64,000 nt of DNA from positions 1,115,113-1,179,112 of the forward strand of contig OZ253545.1 of NCBI GenBank assembly GCA_965262615.1. Reading direction: 5' to 3'. A program made the position numbers and the translations under genes. Under the pieces are notes generated by a model. It did no database searches. It was given only the letters and a program-made list of their open reading frames with translations, and was not told the DNA's origin. Source of the stretch: Alphaproteobacteria bacterium (GTDB lineage Bacteria; Pseudomonadota; Alphaproteobacteria; GM7ARS4; G965262615). Position 1 is the stretch's first letter. Each line of letters starts with the position of its first letter. Positions 1 through 51,197 of this stretch are shown here, in pieces.

Positions 1-877
1 GGAAGATGCTCTGACGCTGGAGCAGTTGGCGCAGCAGGAATCCGATGATGAGGTGTTGCGGGAGGTGGCGGAATCCTTGTTGCCGCTGCATGGCGAATTA
101 ATGCAGGCGCGGTTTTTGACCATGATGGAGGGCGAGGCTGACCATCGGGATTGTTTCGTTGAGATTCATGCGGGCTCCGGCGGCACAGAGGCACAAGACT
201 GGGCGGAGATGTTGCTGCGCATGTATATGCGCTGGGCGAATCGCCGTGATTTTGCCTGTGATTTCATTGAGAACAATGCCGGACAAGAAGCCGGCATCAA
301 ATCGGCAACCATTCGCATTGATGGTGAGTATGCCTATGGCTGGCTGAAGCGGGAGTCGGGGGTTCATCGCTTGGTGCGGCTCTCGCCGTTTGATTCCGCC
401 ATGCGCCGTCATACCAGTTTTGCCTCAATCAAATGCTATCCGGTGATTGATGACTCCATTGATATTGTCATTGAGGATAAAGATTTACGCATTGACACCT
501 ATCGCGCTTCGGGCGCGGGCGGACAGCATGTCAACAAAACCGACAGTGCGGTGCGGATTACCCATTTGCCCACATCGCTGGTGGTGCAGTGTCAAAATGA
601 TCGCTCGCAGCATCGCAACAAGGCGGCGGCGATGACCATGCTCAAAGCCAAACTGTTTGAGCTGGAACTGCAAAAGCGCGAATCAGAAAAACAAGCCGGC
701 AGACAGGCGGAAAAGGACATCTCGTGGGGCAATCAAATTCGCTCCTATGTGCTCCATCCCTATCGCATGATCAAAGACCTGAGAACTCACCACGAGAGCG
801 GCAACACCGATGCGGTATTAGGTGGCGAAATTGATGCCTTCCTGCAGGCATCTCTTACCGCCCAGCTGGAGTCATGA
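1..877 (+). CDS. prfB: Peptide chain release factor 2 (RF2), 5'-truncated at window edge
   Basis: Reading frame is open from nt 2. Contains the GGQ motif region ([24 protein letters not shown]) and an RF2-type C-terminal domain. The N-terminal part, including any programmed frameshift site, lies outside the window. Confidence 0.9.
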
Positions 878-2203
878 GGATAAATTGATTTCATTCAAAA
901 CTTTTTGAGCTTCGGCATAACCTTGTTTGGCAGATTCCTTTAGCCATTTCAACGCTTCTTTAACATCCTGCGTTACACCCTCGCCTTTGAAATACACTCC
1001 ACCCAGAAGATATTGAGCTTTGGCAAGACCTTGTTCAGCAGCTTTTTTGTACCAATTGAACGCCTCTTTTTGATCCTGTGCTACACCCTCGCCATCGAAA
1101 TAAATCACACCTAGATTATACTGGGCTTCATCCAATCCTTGTTCAGCAGCTTTTTTAATCCACTTGACTGCTTCTTTTTGATTATGCGTCACAGCCTCGC
1201 CTTTGTGATACATCACACCTAGATTATATTGTGCTTCGGCATGACCTTGCCCAGCAGCTTTTTCAAACCACTTAACTGCTTCTTTTATATCCTGTGTCAC
1301 ACCCTCGCCATTGAAATAAGCCAAGCCTAGATTACATTGGGCTGGAACATGACCTTGCTGGACAGCTTTTTTATACCAATTGACTGCTTGGGTTGTATCT
1401 TTCGTAATACCATCGCCTTCATGATAAACCACACCAAGATTGTATTGGGCTTCGACAATACCTTGTTCAGCAGCTTTTTTGTACCAATTGAACGCTTGGG
1501 CTTTATCCTGTGCCACACCCTTGCCATTGGTATAAAACACCCCTAGATTATATTGTGCTTCGGCAAGACCTTGTTCAGCAGCTTTTTCAAACCACTTGAT
1601 TGCTTTTGTTTGATCTTGCGTCACACCATCGCCATTGGCATAAAACACCCCTAGATTACATTGGGACTCGGCATGACCTTGTTCAGCAGCTTTTTTGTAC
1701 CATTTCGCCGCTTTTTTATAATCTTGCGTCACTCCTTCACCCTTGGCATACATGATACCAAGATTGCATTGGGCTTTGGCATAACCTCGTTGGGCAGCTT
1801 TTTCAAACCATTTGGCAGCTTCGTTGTAATTCTTAATAGAAACACATTCTAAACCGTAGTTGAAATACCCCTGTGGAGAGCCAAAAAACAAACCCTCTAT
1901 AAATAAAACCAAATTTTTAATGCCAGTAGGAATGTCAGCATCTATGTTATTTGTCATTAGTTGCAACAGTTTAATAATTTTGTGGGGAAATCTAGCAATG
2001 CCAAAGAGGACAATCGCAAAGATTCCCAATTCTACTAACAATTCTTCCAGCTTATTCACTATTAAGCCAAAAGCGAAAAGCAATACACAGATGCCAACTG
2101 CCCCTACACAGAGACAAAGTAACATCGCAAGGGCTTTCTTCCAATTGCGAGGCGCGTACTCTTTGATGAATTCTAATATGATTTTCAAATTAGAATCAGC
2201 CAT
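872..2203 (-). CDS. Sel1-like repeat (SLR) protein with N-terminal membrane domain (two predicted TM helices, FFGSPxGYFxYGxEC motif) and about 9 Sel1 repeats
   Basis: Repeated ~36-aa units AxAQxNLGxMYxxGxGVxQDxxKAxxWxxKAAEQG are typical of Sel1/TPR-like repeats. The N-terminal architecture is shared with ORF 3511..4620. Confidence 0.85.
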
Positions 2204-5770: not shown

Positions 5771-7078
5771 TCACTCACTGTACAGTTGAAGTAAAGCCTC
5801 TCGGGCATCGGCATGACCTTGCTCAGCAGCTTTTTGCCACCATTTCACCACTTTTTCATAATTTCGCGCCACCCCCTCACCGTTGGCATACATCTCACCA
5901 AGATTGAATTGGGCTTCAGCATTCCCTTGTTTGGCAGCTTTTTGATACCACTGCACCGCTTTTTTCTGATCCTGCGTTACCCCCTCACCTTCGTCATACA
6001 TCATACCAAGATATAATTGTGCTAGGGCATAACCTTGTTTGGCAGCTTTTTGCCACCATTCTATCGCTTTTTCCATATTCTGCCTCAATCCCCCCTCACC
6101 ATCGGCATACATGACAGCAAGCATGAATTGGGCTTTGGCGACACCTTGTTGGGCAGCTTGTTGTAACCAGAACACCGCTTTTCCCTTATCCTGTGCCACC
6201 TCCTCACCGTTCACATACATGACACCAAGAGCTGTTTGAGCTAGGGCATCACCTTGTTGGGCAGCTTTTTGCCACCATTCTATCGCTTTTTCCTTATCCT
6301 GCCTCAATCCCCCCTGCCCTTTGCCGTACATGAGACCAAAATTATATTGGGCTTCAGCATTCCCTTGTTCAGCAGCTTTTTGCCACAATTCCACCGCTTT
6401 TTCATAATCTTGCGTCACTCCCTTACCGCCATGATACATCAAGCCAAGATTAAATTGAGCATCAGCATAATCTTGTTGGGCAGCTTTTGTGTACCACTTG
6501 ACCGCTTCTTTTTTATCCTGCGTCACACCATAGCCATTGGCATAAGCCACACCAAGATTATATTGAGCTGGAGCATCACCTTGCTCAGCTGCTTTTTGAT
6601 ACCATTGCACCGCTTTTTCATAATTTTGCGTCACCCCCTTACCGGACTCATACATGACACCAAGACCGAATTGGGCTTCGGCAATACCTTGCTCGGCAGC
6701 TTTTAGCCACCATTCCGCCGCTTTTTCATAATTCTGAGTCACCCCATAACCATTGGCATACATGACACCAAGAGAAAATTGGGCTTGAACAATATCTTGT
6801 TGGGCAGCTTTTTGATACCAGAACATCGCTTTTTCATAATCCTGCGTCACCCCCTCACCGTTGAAATACATAAAGCCAAGATTGTGTTGGGCTTCGGCAT
6901 CCCCTTGTTTGGCAGATTGCAATATCTCATATTGCTCATCTGATAACGCTACCGCCACTGAGCTCAAGGCAGGGAATGTAATAAAGACAGTGACAAGCAA
7001 GAACGCCGCGCGACTCACACGCCGCGCCGATATCTTTGTTTCGTTCCAATTCATCCAATCACTATACCCCTCGCCCAT
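5771..7078 (-). CDS. Secreted Sel1-like repeat protein (about 10 repeats)
   Basis: Sel1 consensus repeats and the MGEGYSDWMNWNETKISARRVSRAAFLL N-terminus. Probable true start at 7054 (MNWNE), downstream of the TTGCAA(7083-7088)-N16-TATAGT(7061-7066) promoter. Confidence 0.85.
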   Translation of the reverse strand: MGEGYSDWMNWNETKISARRVSRAAFLLVTVFITFPALSSVAVALSDEQYEILQSAKQGDAEAQHNLGFMYFNGEGVTQDYEKAMFWYQKAAQQDIVQAQFSLGVMYANGYGVTQNYEKAAEWWLKAAEQGIAEAQFGLGVMYESGKGVTQNYEKAVQWYQKAAEQGDAPAQYNLGVAYANGYGVTQDKKEAVKWYTKAAQQDYADAQFNLGLMYHGGKGVTQDYEKAVELWQKAAEQGNAEAQYNFGLMYGKGQGGLRQDKEKAIEWWQKAAQQGDALAQTALGVMYVNGEEVAQDKGKAVFWLQQAAQQGVAKAQFMLAVMYADGEGGLRQNMEKAIEWWQKAAKQGYALAQLYLGMMYDEGEGVTQDQKKAVQWYQKAAKQGNAEAQFNLGEMYANGEGVARNYEKVVKWWQKAAEQGHADAREALLQLYSE

Positions 7079-24779: not shown

Positions 24780-24866
24780 TGGTGCGGTCGAGAAGACTCG
24801 AACTTCCACGGGATCGCTCCCACAACGCCCTCAACGTTGCGCGTCTACCAGTTCCGCCACGACCGC
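24780..24866 (-). tRNA. tRNA-Leu (anticodon GAG), type II with long variable arm, CCA encoded
   Basis: Reverse complement reads GCGGTCG...CAACG-TTGAGGG-CGTTG...long variable arm...TCGACCGCACCA. The 7/7 acceptor stem, anticodon stem-loop and TpsiC-like GTTCGAGTC were folded by eye. Confidence 0.8.
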
Positions 24867-24907
24867 ACAACCATCACAATACCCCTAGCACATCTGATGA
24901 TGCCATT

Positions 24908-25051
24908 CAATGGACGGTCAGTGATTGTGTTCCCTATCCTGATGCCGTGCAATTCATGGAAGACACCATTGCCGCCATTCAATGGACGGTCAGTGATTGC
25001 GTTCCCTACCCTGATGCCGTGCAATTCATGGAAAACACCATTGCCGCCATT
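24908..25051 (+). repeat. 72-bp perfect-phase tandem duplication (2 copies, 3 mismatches) covering the lipB start region
   Basis: Seen directly in the sequence: CAATGGACGGTCAGTGATTG(T/C)GTTCCCTA(T/C)CCTGATGCCGTGCAATTCATGGAA(G/A)ACACCATTGCCGCCATT occurs twice. Confidence 0.9.
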
Positions 25052-35999: not shown

Positions 36000-37652
36000 A
36001 TGAACAACAAAAAACTCATCGCATGGATTGCCATCACCGTCATTGCCCACACGGGATGGACAATGGGCGTGGCTCATGCCGATGAAACGGTAGATTTGCA
36101 CCAATTGATGGAAGACGCTCAACAAGGCGATGCCGATGCCCAATTCTATCTTGGGTTGATGTATGGCAATGGCGCGGGTGTCACGCAGGATTATGAGGCA
36201 GGCATCTATTGGGTCACAAAAGCCGCGGAACAATGGCATGCCGATGCCCAATACGCTCTTGGGGTGTTTTATAAAAATGGCGATGGTGTGGCACAGAATT
36301 ATGAGAAAGCCGTGTATTGGTATCAAAAAGCCGCGGCGCAAGGAAATGCCGATGCCCAATACGATCTTGGGTTGATGTATGGCAAGGGCGCAGGTGTCAC
36401 GCAGGATTATGAGGCAGGCATCTATTGGTTCACAAAAGCCGCAGAGCAAAACCATGCTGATGCAATAGAAATACTCAAGGAATTAGGCATGGCTCATGAA
36501 ACGGACGAATTGCACCATTTGATGGAACGCGCCCAGCAAGGCGACTCCGTATCCCAATTCTATCTTGGGACGATGTATGAACAGGGCAGAGGTGTCTCTC
36601 GAGATGTTGGACAAGCGGTGCAATGGTATCAAAAAGCCGCCAAGCAAGGATTTGCCCAAGCCCAATACAACCTTGGGTGGATGTATGAAAATGGCACAGG
36701 TGTTCCGCAAGATGATGAACAGGCGGTAGAATGGTATCAAAAAGCCGCGGCACAAGGACTTGCCAATGCTCAAAACAATCTGGCGGAGATGTATCGCGAG
36801 GGCAGAGGTGTTCCGCAGGATGATGAGCAAGCGTTGGAATTGTATCTAAAATCCGCCGAGCAAGGATATGATCGCGCTCAAACCACTATGGGCTGGATGT
36901 ATGACAATGGCATTGGTGTTGTGCAAGATTATGAGCAAGCCGCGCAATGGTTCACAAAAGCCGCGGTGCAAGGATTTGCCCGAGCTCAAAGTAATCTTGC
37001 TATGATGTATCTTCATGGCAGAGGTGTTCCGCAGGATTATGAGCAAGCCGCGCAATGGTGGAGAAAAGCCGCAAGGCAAGGCTATGCCAAGGCTCAATTC
37101 AATCTTGGGCTGATGTATCACAATGGAGATGGGGTTGCACAGGACGATGAGCAAGCTTTGTATTGGTGGGAGAAAGCCGCAAGACAAGGAAATAAAGATG
37201 CAATAGAAGCTCTCAAAATATTAGGCATGGCTGATGAAACGGACGAATTGCACCAATTGAGAGAACGCGCCGAGCAAGGCGATGCCGATGCCCAAAACTA
37301 TCTTGGTGTGATGTATAACACTGGCATGGGTGTGACGCAGGATAAAAAAGAAGCCGTGGAATGGTTCAAAAAATCCGCCGAACAAGGAAATGCCCTCGCC
37401 CAAGCCAATCTTGGAGTGATGTATAGGGATGGGATGGGTGTCACGCAGGATGATGAGGAAGCTGTGGAATGGTGGAAAAAAGCCGCAGAGCAAGAAAATG
37501 CCGTAGCCCAATACAATCTTGCTGTGATGTATGGCAAGGGAATCGGCGTGGCACAGAGTGATGAAAAAGCCGTCTATTGGTTCACAAAAGCCGCCAAACA
37601 AGGCGATGTTGATGCAATAGAAGTTCTCAAGAAATTAGGCATCACCGACTGA
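36000..37652 (+). CDS. Secreted Sel1-like repeat protein (550 aa; three tandem modules each ending DAIE-LK-LGM)
   Basis: Signal peptide ...IAHTGWTMGVAHA and about 13 Sel1 repeats. The last module is about 95% DNA-identical to 13380..13625. Confidence 0.85.
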   Translation: MNNKKLIAWIAITVIAHTGWTMGVAHADETVDLHQLMEDAQQGDADAQFYLGLMYGNGAGVTQDYEAGIYWVTKAAEQWHADAQYALGVFYKNGDGVAQNYEKAVYWYQKAAAQGNADAQYDLGLMYGKGAGVTQDYEAGIYWFTKAAEQNHADAIEILKELGMAHETDELHHLMERAQQGDSVSQFYLGTMYEQGRGVSRDVGQAVQWYQKAAKQGFAQAQYNLGWMYENGTGVPQDDEQAVEWYQKAAAQGLANAQNNLAEMYREGRGVPQDDEQALELYLKSAEQGYDRAQTTMGWMYDNGIGVVQDYEQAAQWFTKAAVQGFARAQSNLAMMYLHGRGVPQDYEQAAQWWRKAARQGYAKAQFNLGLMYHNGDGVAQDDEQALYWWEKAARQGNKDAIEALKILGMADETDELHQLRERAEQGDADAQNYLGVMYNTGMGVTQDKKEAVEWFKKSAEQGNALAQANLGVMYRDGMGVTQDDEEAVEWWKKAAEQENAVAQYNLAVMYGKGIGVAQSDEKAVYWFTKAAKQGDVDAIEVLKKLGITD

Positions 37653-37682: not shown

Positions 37683-38114
37683 TCAAAAAAGTGCCGTGGC
37701 AACCATTCCCAACAGAGCCACCATCACGCTCACAAGAACAACAATCACCCGCGTCGCAAAGAGATTGAAAGCCTGCAACAACACATTGATATCTTCCTTA
37801 ATTTCAGTTCGCGCCTGAGCGATTTGAGTTTCCAGTTTGGCGATTTGAGTTTCCAGTTTGGCGTTATTTTCATTATTTTCAGCTCGCGCCTGAGCGATTT
37901 GAGCTTCCAGTTTGGCGATTTGAGCTTCCAGTTTGGCGATTTTGGTCTCCAGTTTGGCGATATCTTCCTTCGTGGCAAAATTCTTGCCTTGCTCTTTGAT
38001 GGTGGCAACATCCACCTTCAGAGCAACCACATCCGCTTTGAGGGCGACCACATCATCATACAAGCCATTCGCCTTGCGATGTTCGGTTGGTTTTTGTTCC
38101 GTCTGGATAGTCAT
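37683..38114 (-). CDS. Small coiled-coil protein with C-terminal TM anchor (DUF1640/CCDC90-like, tail-anchored)
   Basis: ...ALKADVVALKVDVATIKE...FATKEDIAKLE(IAKLEAQ)n...RVIVVLVSVMVALLGMVATALF. The ATKxDL/I motif and C-terminal TM resemble DUF1640. Start set at MTIQTEQ because the ORF-track extension is the promoter. Confidence 0.55.
   Translation of the reverse strand: MTIQTEQKPTEHRKANGLYDDVVALKADVVALKVDVATIKEQGKNFATKEDIAKLETKIAKLEAQIAKLEAQIAQARAENNENNAKLETQIAKLETQIAQARTEIKEDINVLLQAFNLFATRVIVVLVSVMVALLGMVATALF
37804..37957 (-). repeat. In-frame 21-bp tandem repeats (about 5 copies; heptad IAKLE(A/T)Q) nested within a ~75-bp repeat
   Basis: GATTTGAG(T/C)TTCCAGTTTGGC repeated on the plus strand. 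Confidence 0.85.
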
Positions 38115-39553: not shown

Positions 39554-41077
39554 GTGGAAAAATTCTTTGAATACATTTTCCCAAAAAAAATCAGTACGAG
39601 GTCGCGAGTCTGTCTCTTATTCCTTGTACCCGCATTGTCCATTTTAATCCTTCTTCCATCAATTCTTGAAGCTTGGAATCAACCTCCATTGCCAAGCCAA
39701 TTTTTCTATTCTTTAATTACGGTAACAGGATTTCTGCTTTTTGCTTTGATTTTATCATTAATAAAAGATTTTGAAAAATCATCCGAGCCAACGCGTGACA
39801 TAGCTAAAGACTTACATGATATGCTTCCTGAATTGGCGTTGTATATCACCGAACAATTGGTATCGGATAACATAAAAAATATGCAAAAGAAAGAAGCAAC
39901 AAGACAATTTAATCTTGGTGTCAAACATTTATTTGGCAAGGGTGTTAAAAAAAATGCACAAAAAGCATTCCTCCACTTTGAAGCAGCCGCCCAACAAGGG
40001 GATGCCTACGCCCAATTCAATCTTGCTTTGATGTATAGGAATGGCAAAGGAGTGGCACAAAATGATAAGAAAGCCCTGTATTGGTATCAAAAAGCCGCCC
40101 AACAAGGGGATGCTAGAGCCCAATTCAATCTTGCTTGGATGTATCATGAGGGCAAAGGAGTGGCACAGAATGATGAGAAAGCCCTGTATTGGTATCAAGA
40201 ATCCGCCCAACAAGGGGATGCTAGAGCCCAATTCAATCTTGCTTTAATGTATCATGAGGGCAAAGGAGTGGCACAAAATGATGAGAAAGCCCTGTATTGG
40301 TATCAAAAAGCCGCCCAACAAGGGAATGCCAAAGCCCAATTCAATCTTGCTTGGATGTATGATGAGGGCAAAGGAGTGGCACAGAATGATGAGAAAGCTG
40401 TGTATTGGTATCAAGAATCCGCCCAGCAAGGGGATGCCAAAGCCCAATTCAATCTTGCTTGGATGTATGATGAGGGCAAAGGAGTGGCACAAAATGATAA
40501 GAAAGCACTATATTGGTATCAAGAATCCGCACAACAAGGAAGTGCCAGAGCCCAAATCAGTCTTGGGATGGCTTATGTTGGCGGAAAAGGTATTTCACAG
40601 GATTATCATGAGGCGATGCAATGGTTCAAAAAAGCCGCAGAACAAGGGAGTACCGATGCCCAAAACAATATTGGCTTTATGTATGCCACTGGCATGGGTA
40701 TTAAACCAAATGAGAAAAAAGCAGTGCATTGGCTCACAAAAGCTTCAGAGCAAGGATTTGCCATAGCCCAATTCAATCTCGCTGTGGTGTATGAAAGTGT
40801 GACACAGAATGATCAAAAAGCGAAGCACTGGTATCAAAAAGCCGTCCAGCAAGTTAGTGACGAAACCAAATTCACTCAGCAAGAAGAGCAGGAGAGGATC
40901 AAAGAAGCGGAACAAGAAGGGGATGCCAATTCCTTGTATCTTCTTGGCGTGAGATACGCCATTGGCGAAGAAGTCACGCGAGATTATGAAAAAGCGGCGC
41001 ACTGGTTCACCCAAGCATCTCAGCTGAACTTTATTCAAGCCACGCGAGCTCTTGAATTGCTGAAAAAAGTCAAATAA
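39554..41077 (+). CDS. Sel1-like repeat protein with N-terminal TM segments (AQFNLAxMYxEGKGVAQNDxKA variant)
   Basis: About 11 Sel1 repeats. Confidence 0.85.
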   Translation: MEKFFEYIFPKKISTRSRVCLLFLVPALSILILLPSILEAWNQPPLPSQFFYSLITVTGFLLFALILSLIKDFEKSSEPTRDIAKDLHDMLPELALYITEQLVSDNIKNMQKKEATRQFNLGVKHLFGKGVKKNAQKAFLHFEAAAQQGDAYAQFNLALMYRNGKGVAQNDKKALYWYQKAAQQGDARAQFNLAWMYHEGKGVAQNDEKALYWYQESAQQGDARAQFNLALMYHEGKGVAQNDEKALYWYQKAAQQGNAKAQFNLAWMYDEGKGVAQNDEKAVYWYQESAQQGDAKAQFNLAWMYDEGKGVAQNDKKALYWYQESAQQGSARAQISLGMAYVGGKGISQDYHEAMQWFKKAAEQGSTDAQNNIGFMYATGMGIKPNEKKAVHWLTKASEQGFAIAQFNLAVVYESVTQNDQKAKHWYQKAVQQVSDETKFTQQEEQERIKEAEQEGDANSLYLLGVRYAIGEEVTRDYEKAAHWFTQASQLNFIQATRALELLKKVK

Positions 41078-41326: not shown

Positions 41327-41656
41327 TCACTTCAAAATAAGTGTCACCAGAATGCCCACAAGGGACACAATCACTCCCGCCAGAGCCACAATCACTCGCG
41401 CAGCGGCGCGATTGACGGCATCCAACAACTCATTTTTCGCCTTATCAATCTTGCCATCCACGACCGATATTTTGTCCAGCAGTTCAGCTCGCAAATCGGC
41501 AACATCTTCCTTCGTGGCAAAATGATTGCACTGCTCCTTGATGGTGGCAACATCCACTTTGAGAGTCACCACATCCGCTTTGAGAGCGACCACATCATCA
41601 TGCAAGCCATTCGCACCGCGATGCTTTGGTGGTTCTTGATTCGTTTCTATCGTCAT
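41327..41656 (-). CDS. DUF1640/CCDC90-like small coiled-coil tail-anchored protein
   Basis: Paralog of 37683..38114, with the same C-terminal TM and the FATKEDVADL motif. Confidence 0.55.
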   Translation of the reverse strand: MTIETNQEPPKHRGANGLHDDVVALKADVVTLKVDVATIKEQCNHFATKEDVADLRAELLDKISVVDGKIDKAKNELLDAVNRAAARVIVALAGVIVSLVGILVTLILK

Positions 41657-43254: not shown

Positions 43255-43308
43255 CCGTGAAGAATTTTGGTATTGACAAATTCTGCAAATTCACATATTC
43301 TCACCATC

Positions 43309-43590
43309 ATGACGACAGAGACGAAGCAAAAAAAAGAATATCTCACGGTGACGGCAAAAACCTATCGCTTGAAGAGCGGTCGCGCTCTTCTCATGGTGGA
43401 TTTTACCACTCATGAAAGTGTCGCCGCCCTGCAAAGTGACGATGCTGTCAGTTTGTTGCGGGGAGATATCGCTCAACTGCGTGAAGAAATTGAGAGGGCG
43501 AAAAATGAAGTGATCTATGCCATCAATCGCGCCGCTGTGGGAGTCATTGTTTCTTGTGTGATCGTTATGGTGGCAATCATTCTTAAGTGA
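43309..43590 (+). CDS. DUF1640/CCDC90-like small coiled-coil tail-anchored protein
   Basis: Paralog. Preceded by TTGACA-N17-TATTCT-N7-ATG. Confidence 0.5.
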   Translation: MTTETKQKKEYLTVTAKTYRLKSGRALLMVDFTTHESVAALQSDDAVSLLRGDIAQLREEIERAKNEVIYAINRAAVGVIVSCVIVMVAIILK

Positions 43591-44981: not shown

Positions 44982-45352
44982 ATGAGAACCACCCGCCTTA
45001 TCACATGGATTGCCATTGTCGTCATTGCTCATACGGGCTGGATGCCGAGCGTGGCTCATGCCGAAGAAGATGCCATAGCCCAATACAATCTTGGGGTGGA
45101 TTATTACAACGACAAGGACTACCTACAAGCAGCGTATTGGTGGAAAAAAGCCGCCGAACAAGGGAATGCCAATGCTCAAACCACTCTGGCGTTGATGTAT
45201 TACGATGGCACAGGTGTCACACAGGACGGTCTGCAGGCGGCGTATTGGTTCAAAAAAGCCGCAGAACAAGGACATAAAGGGGCGATAAAAGCCCTCAAGA
45301 AGGAAATAAAGATGCGATAAAAGCCCTCAAAACATTAGGCATGACCAACTAA
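44982..45352 (+). CDS. Short secreted Sel1-like repeat protein, C-terminus disrupted by a 32-bp duplication
   Basis: Signal peptide IAHTGWMPSVAHA and 2 Sel1 repeats. The GCGATAAAAGCCCTCAA direct repeat causes a premature stop at 45320; removing the insertion restores ...KALKTLGMTN*. Confidence 0.6.
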
Positions 45353-45366
45353 TTCAAGGGGTTTTA

Positions 45367-45648
45367 TCATTTAAGAATTAGTGTTACCAGAATGCCGCCC
45401 AGAGCCACAATCACTCCCACGAGAGCCACAATCACCCGCACGGCAAAGCGATTGATGGCTTCCAACAACTCATTTTTCGCCTCAATGACATCTTTTTTGG
45501 TGGCAAAATGATTGCACCGCTCCTTGATGGTGGCAACATCCACCTTGAGATCCACCATATCATCACGCGAGCCATTGGCACCGCGATGCTTGGGTGTTTT
45601 CTGCACCTCGCGATGCTTTGGTGGTTCTTGCTGCGTTTCCATTGTCAT
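45367..45648 (-). CDS. DUF1640/CCDC90-like small coiled-coil tail-anchored protein
   Basis: Paralog with the same promoter and C-terminal TM. Confidence 0.5.
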   Translation of the reverse strand: MTMETQQEPPKHREVQKTPKHRGANGSRDDMVDLKVDVATIKERCNHFATKKDVIEAKNELLEAINRFAVRVIVALVGVIVALGGILVTLILK

Positions 45649-45735
45649 GGTGATGAGAATATGTGCGTTTGCAGGGTTTGTCAATAACAAAATTCTTCAC
45701 GGTCATTTGGCATGACCATGAGGCAAGGGTTTTCG

Positions 45736-46248
45736 TCACTTCAAAATAAGTGTCACCAAGATGCCCACAAGAGACACAATCACTCCCACAAGAGTCACAA
45801 TCACCCGCGTAGCAACGCGATTGAAAGCTTCTAACACCTCATTTTTTGCCTTCTCAATCTTGTGATCCGTGGCTGACATTTTCTCCAGCAGTTCAGCTCG
45901 CAGTTCAGCCATGTCAGCTCGCAGTTCGGCGATGTTTTCCCTATTGTCAGCTCGCAGTTCGGCGATGTTTTCCCTATTGTCAGCTCGCAGTTCGGCGATG
46001 TTTTCCTTATTGTCAGCTCGCGCCTCAGCAATTTGAGTTTCCAGCTTGGCGATTTGAGCTTCCAGTTTGGCGATTTTGGTCTCCAACTTGGCGATATCTT
46101 CCTTCGTGGCAAAATTCTTGCCTTGCTCTTTGATGGTGGCAACATCCACCTTCAGAGCGACCACATCCGCTTTGAGGGCGACCACATCATCATACAAGCC
46201 ATTCGCCTTGCGATGTTCGGTTGGTTTTTGTTCCGTCTGGATAGCCAT
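45736..46248 (-). CDS. DUF1640/CCDC90-like small coiled-coil tail-anchored protein with two in-frame repeat arrays
   Basis: Paralog. Contains (ADNRENIAELR)x3 and the IAKLE heptad array. Confidence 0.55.
   Translation of the reverse strand: MAIQTEQKPTEHRKANGLYDDVVALKADVVALKVDVATIKEQGKNFATKEDIAKLETKIAKLEAQIAKLETQIAEARADNKENIAELRADNRENIAELRADNRENIAELRADMAELRAELLEKMSATDHKIEKAKNEVLEAFNRVATRVIVTLVGVIVSLVGILVTLILK
45913..46011 (-). repeat. In-frame 33-bp tandem repeat (3 copies)
   Basis: GTCAGCTCGCAGTTCGGCGATGTTTTCCCTATT occurs 3 times on the plus strand. Confidence 0.9.
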
Positions 46249-46280: not shown

Positions 46281-47615
46281 TCAATCACAAGATGCCTCAC
46301 GGTCATTTGGCATGAATTGGGCAAGAATTTCATGCAGCTGCTGCCACGCTTCACGCAGTGCCTGTGGTGCGATGCAATACGGTGGCATCATATAGACCAC
46401 ATTACCCAACGGACGCAGCAACAGCCCGCGCCGCAACGCCTCTTCGCCAATGGCTGTGCCAATGGTGGCGTGATAGCCTTCATCCTTGCCATCAATGGTG
46501 AAGGCGGCAATCGTTCCCATGATGCGCGGCTTGGTGATGTGAGGCAGAGTCATGATGTCTTGCATGGCGGTGTGATGAATGTGTTCTATGGCGCGAATGC
46601 GCGTCCATGTGTCGTCCGCATCAAACAGCTGCAATGATGCCAGTGCCGCGGCGCATGCCAATGGATTGGCGGTGTAGGAATGACCATGAGCAAAAAAGTG
46701 TCCCCCATCATGAGCAAAAGCCTCATAGATATGGTTCTGAATGATGGTCGCCGCAAGGGGAAGCGTGCCACCAGTCAATCCTTTGGCACAACAGAGAATG
46801 TCCGGCTGGTGTGCCAATTGGTCGCTGGCGAACAATGAGCCCAAGCGTCCAAAGGCGGTCATGACTTCGTCAAAAATAATAAGCGCATCGCTTTTGGTGC
46901 GAATCATGGCAACCGCCTCATTGAAAAAACGCCTTGAGCTCATCCGCATGCCACTCGCTCCCTGCACCAACGGCTCTAAAATGACCGCATTGAGAGTGTG
47001 CCCGTTGGTGTGCAAGTGTTCAGATAGTGTCTCAAGGGCGCGCTCTTCGGTCACGCCCATTGCGTTGTCATGCAGCCATGTCTCGGGATACGAGGTGAAA
47101 TGAAACGGATAGAGCAAGGATTCAAACCCCTCATAGAGCTGGCATGAGACCCCCGCCGCCATCGCCCCCATGGTGTCACCGTGATAGCCTCCCTCCAATG
47201 CCAGAAAGTGCTTGGGTTCTTTGCCCTTTTTGCGCCAGTAGAGCCATGCCATTTTGAGAGCAATTTCAACGGCGCACGAGCCATTATCGGAGAAAAACAC
47301 CCGCTGCAATGATGATGGTGTCACCCGCGCCAGATGCTCTGCCACCCGCACCGCGCCCTCATGAGTCACACCGGCAAACAACACATGAGACAATCGCTCA
47401 CTTTGTTTGTGAATGGCTTTCATGATGGCAGGATGACGATGACCGTGGGTCACCACCCACCACGAAGAGATGAGATCCTGATAGCCGCGATCCGTTTCAT
47501 CATAGAGAACACTGCCTTCAGCTCGCGTGATGACCAACGGCGCACCGCCCTTATCAAACGGATGCCACAAATGAGTCGCGTCTAAAGACGAAAGATTATG
47601 TGGAAACGCCATCAA
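46281..47615 (-). CDS. bioA: Adenosylmethionine-8-amino-7-oxononanoate aminotransferase
   Basis: Class-III aminotransferase with PLP-lysine motif CCAKGLTGG, in a bio operon. Confidence 0.88.
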   Translation of the reverse strand: MMAFPHNLSSLDATHLWHPFDKGGAPLVITRAEGSVLYDETDRGYQDLISSWWVVTHGHRHPAIMKAIHKQSERLSHVLFAGVTHEGAVRVAEHLARVTPSSLQRVFFSDNGSCAVEIALKMAWLYWRKKGKEPKHFLALEGGYHGDTMGAMAAGVSCQLYEGFESLLYPFHFTSYPETWLHDNAMGVTEERALETLSEHLHTNGHTLNAVILEPLVQGASGMRMSSRRFFNEAVAMIRTKSDALIIFDEVMTAFGRLGSLFASDQLAHQPDILCCAKGLTGGTLPLAATIIQNHIYEAFAHDGGHFFAHGHSYTANPLACAAALASLQLFDADDTWTRIRAIEHIHHTAMQDIMTLPHITKPRIMGTIAAFTIDGKDEGYHATIGTAIGEEALRRGLLLRPLGNVVYMMPPYCIAPQALREAWQQLHEILAQFMPNDREASCD

Positions 47616-48010
47616 ACAAGATGGTGAATTTTTTCATGATGCCCTTGAGGGGATTTTGAGTTTTTGCCATCACGACCATCCAAATAGGTCTTGTAGAAAA
47701 GATTGTGATAGTGAGCAATGAGCTGTGTGACATCATTGTCATCTTCCACTCTAAAAACACGCACATTTCTGACACACTGACCAAACCACTCATGATGTGC
47801 CACCATCTCTTGCAAGGCACTGACGCACTCCAGCCAAGAAGATGCTCCCAAATAGACACTGCCCTGCACATTGACCAAAGCATACTTCTTGAAAACATCA
47901 CCAATGGCTTTGTAGGCATTTTGATAGGAAGTGGGACATTCTCGCTCCAGACACTTTGTGTCCATATCAAACACCACGGCATAAGTTGAACTGCTGGTTT
48001 TCGGTGTCAT
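47612..48010 (-). CDS. vapD: VapD-family (Cas2-fold) endoribonuclease-like protein
   Basis: YAVVFDMD...YQNAYKAIGDVFKKYALVNVQGSVYLG...EWFGQCVRNVRVFRVEDDNDVTQ parallels H. pylori/Haemophilus VapD (YALAFDL...QGSVYV...EWFKKSVRDIRAFKVEDFSD). Confidence 0.75.
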   Translation of the reverse strand: MTPKTSSSTYAVVFDMDTKCLERECPTSYQNAYKAIGDVFKKYALVNVQGSVYLGASSWLECVSALQEMVAHHEWFGQCVRNVRVFRVEDDNDVTQLIAHYHNLFYKTYLDGRDGKNSKSPQGHHEKIHHLV

Positions 48011-48027
48011 GGTTCTAATTTAATCAA

Positions 48028-48807
48028 TTACGATAACGATAGCAAGCTTGTGTCATAAGGCGGATGGCGGGCAAAAAATTCTTCTGACAATGGCTGATGA
48101 AACGGCAGATGACCGACAATTGACACATCACCATAACGCTCAATTGCGGACGCGTTTTCATCATCGGCGTCTCCCACCAACACGACTCCCGCCACCTCAA
48201 TGCCGTGCAGACGCAATGCCTGCAGTGTCAAACAGGTATGATTGATCGTTCCCAGAGCGGTGCGCGCCACCACAATCGCCGATGCTTGCCACAAGGCAAA
48301 GGCATCAATCATGAATTGGGAATCATTGAGAGGCACCATCACGCCGCCTGCGCCTTCAATGATGAGAGGGGCATCATCAGGAGTTGGCGGTGTCAATTGG
48401 TCAAGGGCAATGGTGACTCCTTCGGCGGCGGCGGCTTCATGAGGCGAGCGCGCCAGCTGAAAATCATAGGCGGGAGGTGCGGCAACCACGCCGCCCAGTG
48501 ATGCCACACGAGATGAATCATCCGTGCCGCTCTCGTCTCGTCCGCATTGAATCGCCTTCCAGTAAGCCCCGCCACCATGATGCAGCAACCACGCCGCCAC
48601 CACGGTTTTACCCACATTGGTATCGCTTCCTGTGACAATCATACGAGGTGTCATATTGTCTTTTTGGCTGTCTTTTTGGGTCATGATAGCCGCCGCGCCA
48701 CACGATAGGCAATTTTCCAATCCACAATCAAGGGTGTCTGTTGACGCACCACCCACGCTCGCTCGCCGAAGGGCGCGCCTTTGTATGAGGCGGCGGCGGT
48801 GTGACAT
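48028..48807 (-). CDS. bioD: Dethiobiotin synthetase
   Basis: P-loop VTGSDTNVGKT. True start is probably the internal Met (MTPRMIVTG). Confidence 0.85.
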   Translation of the reverse strand: MSHRRRLIQRRALRRASVGGASTDTLDCGLENCLSCGAAAIMTQKDSQKDNMTPRMIVTGSDTNVGKTVVAAWLLHHGGGAYWKAIQCGRDESGTDDSSRVASLGGVVAAPPAYDFQLARSPHEAAAAEGVTIALDQLTPPTPDDAPLIIEGAGGVMVPLNDSQFMIDAFALWQASAIVVARTALGTINHTCLTLQALRLHGIEVAGVVLVGDADDENASAIERYGDVSIVGHLPFHQPLSEEFFARHPPYDTSLLSLS

Positions 48808-49463
48808 CCTGTCATTTTCAATTGACGCACAAAGGCGCGCGGGGAGGCGGCAAACTGCTCATGAACAATGGTCTCAGATGCGAGTGTATCGCAATGAGCG
48901 AGACGCAGCCATTCATCCAGTTCAGACGCGCACGGCAGAGGCAGCAATCCATGACGCAACGCCCGCGAGCCAATCAATCGCCGCCATGACGACCAGCTCT
49001 GTGCCAACGGCACAGAAAACGCCAGCAAGCCTCCATCCGCCACCAACGATGCCAGTTTTTCCAGTGCTCGCGCGCCATCATTCATCCAGTGAAGCCCCAT
49101 GTTGATGGTGACAAGATCAAAGATGCCCGCCCGCACCGCCAGCCGATTCACATCCCCCACCACACGCCCCACAGATGATGACACTTCCCGCATCATGGCA
49201 TGACTGCAATCCATCATCACGACACGACCCGTCGCCACCGTTCCATAACGACAACGCGCCTCATACAATGCACCCGTGCCACACGCCACATCCAACCAGT
49301 GGCGCGGCGCATCATGAACCGACAGCATCCGCGCCAAATGGGCGGCAATGGTCTTTTGCACCGTTGCCCATTCATCATAGTGAGGCGCGGCGCGTGAGAA
49401 ATTAGCATGACACTCACGAACCGACATGAGACATACAGTCACGAATGGCGGCGGCACAGTCAT
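48681..49463 (-). CDS. bioC: Malonyl-ACP O-methyltransferase
   Basis: SAM motif I LDVACGTGAL, and MGLHWMND. Confidence 0.8.
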   Translation of the reverse strand: MTVPPPFVTVCLMSVRECHANFSRAAPHYDEWATVQKTIAAHLARMLSVHDAPRHWLDVACGTGALYEARCRYGTVATGRVVMMDCSHAMMREVSSSVGRVVGDVNRLAVRAGIFDLVTINMGLHWMNDGARALEKLASLVADGGLLAFSVPLAQSWSSWRRLIGSRALRHGLLPLPCASELDEWLRLAHCDTLASETIVHEQFAASPRAFVRQLKMTGCHTAAASYKGAPFGERAWVVRQQTPLIVDWKIAYRVARRLS

Positions 49464-50043
49464 GAGGATGGGTCACAGGCAGCAGGTGATTGCCATCATC
49501 ACACCAGCGCACAGGCTTTATGGTGCATTGTGGTGACACAATGGCATCGCGCCGTCCCGCCAAAGACACAATGGGAACATGGCTCTTGTGCAGTTGCTCA
49601 AGAGGTTTCCGTCCATCCCATGTGGCAAGCCAGTGCAATCCCTCGTCCAGACGCTGCCAGTTGTAGCGGCAGTGCGGCATGGATGACACACCACACGCTC
49701 TATGAAAATTCGCCACCGTCTCTTGCGGCGATGTTTGCAGACGCTGCCTCATGGCGCGCAACGCGGCTTTGGTGTCAGAAGTGACAAAATGACTAAACCC
49801 ATTGATGCTCACATATCCATCATACACGACTGGCTGCATGAGCAGCCATAAAAATCCGAGAGAATGTCCCACCGCCACAGTTTTGTGTGCCGTCTTCTCA
49901 TGCCATTGCGGCGTGCCACTAAATCCCAAATTGATGTGGTTCACGGGTTCATCATGCCACAGCGAATCAACGAACCGCCACAGACGCTCATCCCACGCCC
50001 AGCCATGAACAAAAAGGATGGTCATGATGATTTCTCCTGCCAT
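49414..50043 (-). CDS. bioH: Pimeloyl-ACP methyl ester esterase (BioH-like alpha/beta hydrolase)
   Basis: LFVHGWAWDERLW and the nucleophile elbow GHSLG, in bio-operon context. Confidence 0.75.
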   Translation of the reverse strand: MAGEIIMTILFVHGWAWDERLWRFVDSLWHDEPVNHINLGFSGTPQWHEKTAHKTVAVGHSLGFLWLLMQPVVYDGYVSINGFSHFVTSDTKAALRAMRQRLQTSPQETVANFHRACGVSSMPHCRYNWQRLDEGLHWLATWDGRKPLEQLHKSHVPIVSLAGRRDAIVSPQCTIKPVRWCDDGNHLLPVTHPHDCAAAIRDCMSHVGS

Positions 50044-51197
50044 GACAACAAAAGGCTCGCCACACGGTCTATATCATCCTTGCGATGCGCGGCAGACAAG
50101 GAAAGACGCAAGCGCGCCGTGTGCGGCGGCACGGTGGGCGGACGCACAGCAGGCACAAAAAAGCCATGCTCATAAAGAAAATCCGATGCCGCCAGAGCGC
50201 GCTCATTAGAACCCATAATAATAGGCACAATAGGCGTGTCATGGGACGGGCAATTCAATTGATCGCCTAGAAATTGTCTGAGGCGTTTGCCATGTGCCAT
50301 AACACTCTGTCTCAGGTAATTCCATTGATTCATATTGTCAAACACCGCCTCAATGGCTCCCAGCACGGGCGGCGGCAGAGCGGTGGAATAAACCAGTCCC
50401 CCCGCTTTTTGCAGCAACAGCTGAGCGATGGTGTCATTGCAAAAACACACCGCGCCATAACAGCCATACGCCTTGCCAAAAGTCGCCGTGATGATGCCGC
50501 TCGGCATGGCGCGCGCCAAGCCGTGTCCATTTTTGCCCAACACACCAAAGGCATGGGCATCATCCAACAGCAGCAACGCATCGTATTCAGCTGCCAATGA
50601 TTGCAACATCGCCACATCACAGCAATCACCATCCATGCTAAACAGCGTGTCTGACACAATAAAACGACACAAATTTTTATCTCGGTCACGCTCAAGCAAT
50701 GATGCCAAGTGGTCATAATCCAAATGACGATATCGCCGCATACGCGCACCCGCCGTGCGCACGCCGTGATACAAACTGGCATGATTGAGACGATCCATAT
50801 AGACCATAGAATCAAAAGGTAGAAGTGATTTATCCAAAACAGACGCTAACACACTGCCGTTACAGGAAAATCCATTGCCAAAAATAATGGCACGGGGCAT
50901 TTCTTTCGCCGCCGCCATGCGCGCCTCCAATTGCGCCACCGCCGTGAGTGATGCTCCCAGCAGGCGCGAGCCATTCATCCCCGTGCCATAGCGTTGCAAC
51001 CATCGCTGCGCACCCTCACGCACCACCTCATGATGACTCAGTCCCAAATAGTCATTGCTGGCGTAATTGACCAGTGTCCGACCACCAATGACCACCTCAC
51101 CAGCATCATAAGTCTCCACATGGGTTAAATGACGCAACGCTCCCTGCCTTTGCAATGCGCGCAAATAATCATCATAATAGGACAGCAATTGAGTCAT
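50022..51197 (-). CDS. bioF: 8-amino-7-oxononanoate synthase
   Basis: AONS/KBL family; PLP lysine in TFGKAYG; LDDAHAFGVLG. Confidence 0.85.
   Translation of the reverse strand: MTQLLSYYDDYLRALQRQGALRHLTHVETYDAGEVVIGGRTLVNYASNDYLGLSHHEVVREGAQRWLQRYGTGMNGSRLLGASLTAVAQLEARMAAAKEMPRAIIFGNGFSCNGSVLASVLDKSLLPFDSMVYMDRLNHASLYHGVRTAGARMRRYRHLDYDHLASLLERDRDKNLCRFIVSDTLFSMDGDCCDVAMLQSLAAEYDALLLLDDAHAFGVLGKNGHGLARAMPSGIITATFGKAYGCYGAVCFCNDTIAQLLLQKAGGLVYSTALPPPVLGAIEAVFDNMNQWNYLRQSVMAHGKRLRQFLGDQLNCPSHDTPIVPIIMGSNERALAASDFLYEHGFFVPAVRPPTVPPHTARLRLSLSAAHRKDDIDRVASLLLSWQEKSS

Follow-up and report, generated by a model that had tools for sequence, protein, structure and literature searches.

A VapD-family gene located between bioD and bioA in the biotin operon of an alphaproteobacterial genome and its close relatives

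The stretch of DNA examined here, 64 kb of the alphaproteobacterial contig OZ253545.1 (hereafter the window), carries a biotin operon in which a small gene of the VapD family, vapD, lies between bioD and bioA. The genes of the operon, identified with TIGRFAM and Pfam models, follow one another on the minus strand in the order bioF-bioH-bioC-bioD-vapD-bioA. The vapD coding sequence (47612..48010) appears in the list of open reading frames with an ATG start and 132 residues followed by a TGA stop. The first gene of the operon, bioF (8-amino-7-oxononanoate synthase, 50022..51197; TIGR00858, E 2e-108), is divergent from hemB. Farther along, bioC (malonyl-ACP (acyl carrier protein) O-methyltransferase, 48681..49463) is recognized by methyltransferase Pfam domains and by TIGR02072 at an E value of 1e-32, which is under the curated cutoff of that model. 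Dethiobiotin synthase is encoded by bioD (48028..48684; TIGR00347, E 2e-30; PF13500), which overlaps bioC by 4 nucleotides (nt), and bioA (adenosylmethionine-8-amino-7-oxononanoate transaminase, 46281..47612) matches TIGR00508 over its curated cutoff (E 2e-143).

Five relatives of this locus were found in public assemblies, with BioD proteins 85-99% identical to that of the window and an origin in at least four metagenome samples (ENA assembly ERZ26695794 and three 'PANK22-1' samples). Their VapD proteins are 92% (L024, ERZ23497239), 84% (L002, ERZ26695794), 80% (L001, a 179-kb contig also from ERZ26695794), 77% (L004, ERZ23497010, BioD 85%) and 75% (L025, ERZ23497109) identical to the window protein; L024 and L025 are short contigs that hold only the ends of the flanking genes. 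All five share the order bioD-vapD-bioA. The preliminary description of this DNA, made from the sequence alone, had named an absent or pseudogenized vapD in close relatives as one observation that would speak against its reading, and the gene proved intact in every one of the five, hence in six of six clade members. Across these six genomes vapD is the only frame at its position that stays open in all.

Comparison with L001 and L002 was used to assign the starts of bioD and bioF. In the same two relatives the placement of a bioH-like gene between bioF and bioC is kept, and the gene called there shares 50 nt with bioC. The assignment of this gene in the window (49414..50025) as a bioH-like esterase is weak, with a partial match to TIGR01738 (E 1e-5) as its only model hit and no Pfam match; it may encode a divergent pimeloyl-ACP methyl ester esterase.

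The two junctions of vapD are both tight. A spacer of 17 nt (48011..48027) separates it from bioD on the same strand, as the preliminary description had stated, and this spacer is mostly kept in the relatives and has no Shine-Dalgarno motif. At the other end, the sense strand reads TGATG (47610..47614), such that the vapD TGA (47614..47612) and the bioA ATG (47612..47610) have one base in common. This overlap, placed at 47612..47615, had been attributed to the bioA stop; because bioA is downstream of vapD on the minus strand, it is in fact the bioA start that is involved. DNA alignment with L001, L002 and L004 gives a different arrangement in the relatives, where vapD ends in TAA and is followed by 9 nt and then by the same bioA start. 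In L025 the bioA start is GTG.

Members of the VapD family are small nucleases resembling Cas2 that work as dimers and occur either as the toxins of VapXD, VapYD and VapWD pairs or as solitary genes. The proposal that the 132-residue frame is a VapD gene with a Cas2 fold is backed both by sequence matches in the PDB and NCBIfam and by its best fold match, and the motifs quoted in its favor can be seen in the protein, with QGSVY occupying residues 49-53 and EWFGQCVRNVRVFRVED residues 74-90. A phmmer search of all PDB chains returned significant matches to VapD proteins and none to Cas2, headed by the VapDs of Xylella (5dyr, E 6.9e-12), Haemophilus influenzae (6zi0, 1.1e-11; 6zi0 and 6zn8 are both at about 1e-11) and Helicobacter pylori (3ui3, 8.8e-11). 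The NCBIfam VapD model NF041506 matches at an E value of 1.2e-8. Close homologs are few: among 1.84 billion cluster representatives, searched exhaustively, 213 homologs were found, of which a single cluster exceeds 50% identity and the next stands at 45%. Beyond the clade, even the nearest homologs do not exceed 46% identity. A profile search gathered more than 5,500 family members, labelled VapD, 'virulence factor' or 'endoribonuclease VapD' by their sources, and an exact-sequence look-up of the window protein found no existing record.

The predicted structure leads to the same family. An AlphaFold2 model of the monomer was built from a 62-sequence family alignment, superseding one from a 5-sequence alignment with a predicted local distance difference test score (pLDDT) of 67. 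It has a pLDDT of about 95 for residues 11-100, with the first 5 and last 21 residues disordered, and the segment of the gene that matches the VapD fold spans 47693..47986. The best Foldseek matches in the PDB are 3ui3_A (root-mean-square deviation (rmsd) 2.0 Å), 6zn8_A (rmsd 1.7 Å, template modeling (TM) score 0.82) and 9kan_A, and the top nine are all VapD or VapW entries, with best TM scores of 0.75-0.82 and rmsd values of 1.7-2.1 Å. Cas2 structures match about four orders of magnitude more weakly (E of about 1e-3 vs about 1e-7 for VapD). Two PDB entries had been cited as VapD references; 3UI3 is indeed a VapD, and 3EXC is the Cas2 protein SSO8090. The window protein is thus a genuine member of the VapD family, divergent but complete.

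Its best structural match, H. pylori HP0315 (3UI3), is likewise a small solitary VapD with a Cas2-like ferredoxin fold and stands outside any toxin-antitoxin pair (PMC3351183). Mutagenesis of HP0315 found D7, L13, S43 and D76 to be important (PMC3351183), and a 2025 census of VapDs describes the Asp and Ser as a catalytic pair that is required for toxicity and that, when lost, marks a protein as an inactive VapW antitoxin (PMC11980593). Both members of the pair are conserved in the window protein. In alignments with 6zi0 and 5dyr, D15 (codon 47966..47968) corresponds to the catalytic D7 of HP0315 and of H. influenzae VapD; it lies in YAVVFDMD on strand β1 and does not vary in the clade or in any of 57 outgroup VapDs. 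S51 (codon 47858..47860), in the QGS-x-Y turn, corresponds to S43 of HP0315, is S or T in 57/57 outgroup VapDs, and is kept in the window and four relatives. With D15 and S51 both kept, the window protein is not a VapW, a class characterized by loss of the Asp and/or the Ser. At the position of D76, the acidic residue of strand β4 in HP0315, the window protein has N82 (codon 47765..47767). Outgroup VapDs have D here in 47 of 57 cases and N in the other 10. Among proteins of solved structure, the Xylella VapD 5dyr also has N (VSNVQ), and RNase activity has been measured for Xylella VapD (PMC4687846). The exception at S51 is the L004 ortholog (6621..6947), which reads QGGFY where the others read QGSVY and has lost the catalytic Ser, in addition to a Y33T change, in a frame that is still intact; under the definition given in the census it would be classed as VapW-like and inactive.

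Beyond these residues, the resemblance to known systems is partial. HP0315 is about 30% identical, has Asp at 76 where the window protein has Asn, and adjoins the antitoxin-related HP0316 rather than lying within a biosynthetic operon; the window protein adds a 9-residue N-terminal and a 24-residue disordered C-terminal extension. The Xylella fastidiosa VapD (5DYR) is the top sequence match among solved structures; it and the 148-152-residue 'virulence factor' VapDs of Haemophilus and Pasteurella have the FDMDT-x-CL N-terminal motif and the Asn at the D76 position in common with the window protein. However, these proteins are at most 45% identical to the window protein, end in a long helical extension that bears no relation to its tail, and belong to other host operons, with the Xylella gene located on plasmid pXF51. 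The toxins of VapXD, VapYD and VapWD (H. influenzae 6ZN8 and Campylobacter jejuni 9KAN) are homologous, with 6zn8_A at 33% identity, and their Asp and Ser are kept in the window protein; unlike them, the window vapD has no adjacent VapX, VapY or VapW gene and no VapD paralog in the window.

How strongly is the gene maintained? Of the 108 core positions of VapD, 68 are invariant across five members of the clade. The pairwise ratio of nonsynonymous to synonymous substitution rates (dN/dS) is 0.29-0.64 for vapD, and its bootstrap 95% interval lies below 1 in 10 of the 15 pairs; the same genomes give 0.09-0.15 for bioA, 0.05-0.12 for bioD and 0.18-0.30 for bioF and bioH. These ratios indicate that vapD is retained intact under moderate purifying selection. 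Beyond the clade, sampling is sparse. The BioD homolog next in line, at 58% identity, is on a 901-bp contig (L023) where bioD is followed not by vapD but directly by a Sel1-repeat gene (755..901). At about 50% BioD identity, named matches are mostly metagenome-assembled genomes (MAGs) of Magnetococcales, and bioD stands alone in the two contigs examined. The clade was not found among GTDB representative genomes, where a single VapD at 45% identity was recovered, and the JGI metagenome collection likewise held no clade members, its relatives being at most 45% identical.

Several features set vapD apart from the genes around it. Its guanine-plus-cytosine (GC) content is 0.44-0.46 vs 0.52-0.58 for the five bio genes in four genomes, roughly 9 points lower. 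In the relatives all other junctions of the operon are overlaps, and vapD alone is bounded by short gaps. The family itself is frequent on small mobilizable plasmids (276 plasmid records) and rare in phage records (2). Judged by these features, by the low identity of its homologs beyond the clade and by the different surroundings of bioD in the next lineages, vapD would have been acquired horizontally. The gene has also continued to change. A C-terminal tail of residues 109-132, encoded with the stop at 47612..47686, is present in the window and L024 only. As seen in the DNA alignment with L001, L002 and L004, a 62-nt insertion (47623..47684) displaced the ancestral TAA and created both the 24-residue tail and the overlap with bioA. 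The tail is predicted to be disordered (pLDDT of about 42) and has a GC content at third codon positions of 0.24. A search of the window and of all fetched loci gave no further copy of the insertion.

Neither a partner nor signals of its own could be found for vapD. The absence of an obvious antitoxin frame, already remarked on in the preliminary description, held up: the bioD-vapD gap is too short, overlapping frames are broken in relatives, and a tblastn search of the window, L001, L002 and L004 found no second VapD or VapW copy. Two hidden partners were considered and rejected, a 128-residue alternative-frame candidate (47596..47982) interrupted in three relatives and a 94-residue antisense candidate (47705..47989) interrupted in two. 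The neighbors of vapD are bioD and bioA, with no adjacent VapX, VapY or VapW gene, VapX and VapY profiles not having been run outside the operon. A simple consensus scan of the minus strand detected no promoter-like or terminator-like site at either vapD junction, in keeping with the earlier claim that the gene lies inside the bio operon in the same orientation as its neighbors. One hairpin resembling a terminator, at 47607..47626, was dismissed as an operon signal, as it sits on the plus strand, the wrong one. The RNA at the bioD-vapD and vapD-bioA junctions folds no better than shuffled sequences (z-scores 0.1 to 0.6). Shine-Dalgarno motifs are missing from most genes in this lineage, and therefore their absence before vapD and bioA is uninformative.

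The context had been called unusual for a VapD, which proves to be an overstatement. Roughly half of all VapD homologs are without an associated antitoxin (PMC11980593), and two distant solitary VapDs (42-45% identity) lie in other housekeeping clusters. One (L012, 5986..6432), on a contig judged by eye from its sequences to be Pasteurellaceae-like, is found 10 nt after pgl in a co-directional zwf-pgl-vapD-(271-residue frame)-gnd cluster, and is the same 148-residue protein that is named 'virulence factor' in H. influenzae and Pasteurella records. The other (L003, 4308..4745), in a Methylococcaceae MAG, lies 3 nt before greA in a co-directional carB-vapD-greA arrangement. Solitary VapD genes inserted co-directionally in housekeeping clusters are thus a recurrent finding, and together with the census these cases make the bio-operon context less unusual than proposed. 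Our literature search found nothing connecting VapD with biotin genes; the context is undocumented but not exceptional.

We consider it likely that vapD is a horizontally acquired, antitoxin-less VapD nuclease that became fixed in the ancestor of this clade, is co-transcribed with the bio operon and is held under moderate purifying selection. In this scenario, the ancestor of a small uncultured clade would have gained vapD horizontally, with the short gap between bioD and bioA as its landing site. Because vapD lacks a promoter, a terminator and a partner of its own, it is most likely carried on the bioF-bioH-bioC-bioD-vapD-bioA messenger. It would be translated in tandem with bioA, and in the window ribosomes that end vapD would terminate at the bioA start codon. 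The outcome would be a fixed solitary VapD whose level tracks expression of the bio operon, with no sign of a classical addiction module. The window protein is probably active as a stand-alone nuclease, and any benefit to the cell would, like its co-transcription, its translational coupling and its foreign origin, be a matter of interpretation from the sequence.

A number of observations weigh against this reading. As a family member the window protein is divergent: its NF041506 score of 35 bits is far under the 100-bit curated cutoff, and Pfam Cas2 (PF09827, CRISPR_Cas2) matches it at an E value of 4.5e-4 and 20.8 bits, short of the gathering cutoff of 23.8. The D76-equivalent residue is Asn in the window and in the entire clade. 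In L001 (G50D) and L004 (Y33T, S51G and V52F), sites have changed that are invariant in the 57 outgroup VapDs (S or T at 51), which speaks against a catalytic role that is strictly kept throughout the clade; the part of the clade represented by these two may be able to do without canonical catalysis, or the demand for it may be relaxed there. The nonsynonymous rate of vapD is 3-8x that of bioA and bioD. Divergence within the clade is small (dS up to about 0.5), and the persistence of the gene could partly reflect too little time for its loss. The low GC content of vapD could be due in part to amino-acid composition, and the probable co-transcription is based on the absence of consensus signals in a simple scan.

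Some of the same observations would fit an entrenched passenger, a protein that no longer matters much. Its frame would be retained chiefly because bioA needs the ribosomes that translate vapD, and clean loss would be costly. Here belong the motif substitutions in L001 and L004, loss of the catalytic Ser included, the 3-8x higher dN, and the 62-nt insertion that remodelled the 3' end of vapD without harm; in addition, bioA has no Shine-Dalgarno motif and starts 9 nt past the vapD stop in the relatives or overlaps it in the window. We nevertheless find this account unlikely, since a dN/dS of 0.3-0.4 implies constraint on the amino acids beyond an open frame alone, 68 of the 108 core positions do not vary across five members, and a motif that is missing from most genes of the lineage says little by being missing before bioA. 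Improbable, in our view, is a toxin of a toxin-antitoxin or addiction system that stabilizes the locus or arrests growth, with its antitoxin encoded elsewhere or in the form of a small RNA. In the VapXD, VapYD and VapWD pairs VapD acts as the toxin, and the Asp and Ser that toxicity needs (PMC11980593) are both kept in the window protein. However, known VapD antitoxins are encoded beside their toxins (PMC11980593), and vapD has no small gene adjoining it, no VapD or VapW paralog in the window or three related loci, and no conserved overlapping frame. Nor is there mobile DNA nearby; the window belongs to the chromosomal core and carries the dcw cluster (with ftsZ), hemB and cysK-like and thiF-like genes, and a chromosomal biotin operon has no need of addiction.

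The gene could also have been recruited as a regulator, either to process or degrade the bio messenger as a nuclease or to act as a brake on growth when biotin shortage derepresses the operon. The stable co-location and likely co-expression of vapD with bio genes in six genomes, and its purifying selection, lend this idea circumstantial support, yet we think it quite improbable: no conserved RNA structure is seen at either junction, the motif is degraded in two relatives, and related solitary VapDs in the unrelated pentose phosphate and carB-greA clusters point to opportunistic insertion rather than a pathway-specific role. Both ideas put forward in the preliminary description, the addiction module and the regulator of bio mRNA, are without support so far. 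It is extremely improbable that the gene is an orphan cas2 left from a CRISPR-Cas adaptation module. Cas2 shares the ferredoxin-like fold and the N-terminal catalytic Asp on strand β1, and there are the sub-gathering Pfam match and a PADLOC Cas2 match (E 1e-8). Against this, matches to solved structures are all VapD at the sequence level and closer to VapD at the level of fold, the neighbors are bioD and bioA with no cas1 next door, and the 64-kb window contains no CRISPR-like repeats or arrays and no Rfam CRISPR families. No rival is backed by positive evidence.

If a horizontally acquired, solitary nuclease gene is indeed what lies here, existing knowledge of VapD and of biotin synthesis stands unchanged, and the locus represents a fairly ordinary settlement of a mobile gene. 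It is nonetheless a clean natural example of a solitary VapD that several related genomes tolerate, keep intact and probably express from an operon of housekeeping biosynthesis, and its six orthologs are usable as a small comparative system for the toxicity of antitoxin-less VapDs and the selection that retains them. A more far-reaching possibility, which we hold to be improbable as well, is that VapD was recruited as a starvation-coupled effector, an antitoxin-less toxin under the control of its host operon that is made only when biotin is scarce and that cuts RNA or DNA. Were this so, growth would be slowed or the output of the bio messenger or BioA tuned, and the solitary VapDs in zwf-pgl-gnd and carB-greA would represent a general strategy and not chance insertion.

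The surroundings of the operon have features of their own. A paralogous family of small proteins (107-170 residues) flanks it at 41327..41656 (-), 43267..43590 (+), 45367..45690 (-) and 45736..46248 (-), with repeat copies also at 37790..37960 and 33-nt tandem repeats in one copy. Its members combine a coiled coil with a C-terminal membrane helix (N-terminus ..QEPPKHRGANGL.DDVVALKADV.., C-terminus ..VGILVTLILK), and a conserved leader (..ccatattctcatcacc ATG) precedes each copy. The family has only weak Pfam matches, to CCDC90-like and DUF1640 models, and its copy number and position vary among the window, L001 and L002. Sel1-repeat genes are also numerous, at 36000..37652 (+), 39554..41077 (+) and 44982..45320 (+), one of them with 12 repeats (Pfam E 3e-146); their abundance, with the Sel1 gene after bioD in L023, suggests a host-associated lifestyle for this lineage, whose relatives were found in few ENA assemblies only and whose nearest BioD homologs beyond the clade reach no more than 58% identity. 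Farther away, the single tRNA gene in the window (tRNA-Leu GAG, 24780..24866) lies just upstream of a perfect-register 72-nt tandem duplication (24902..25045, 96% identical) within an open reading frame.

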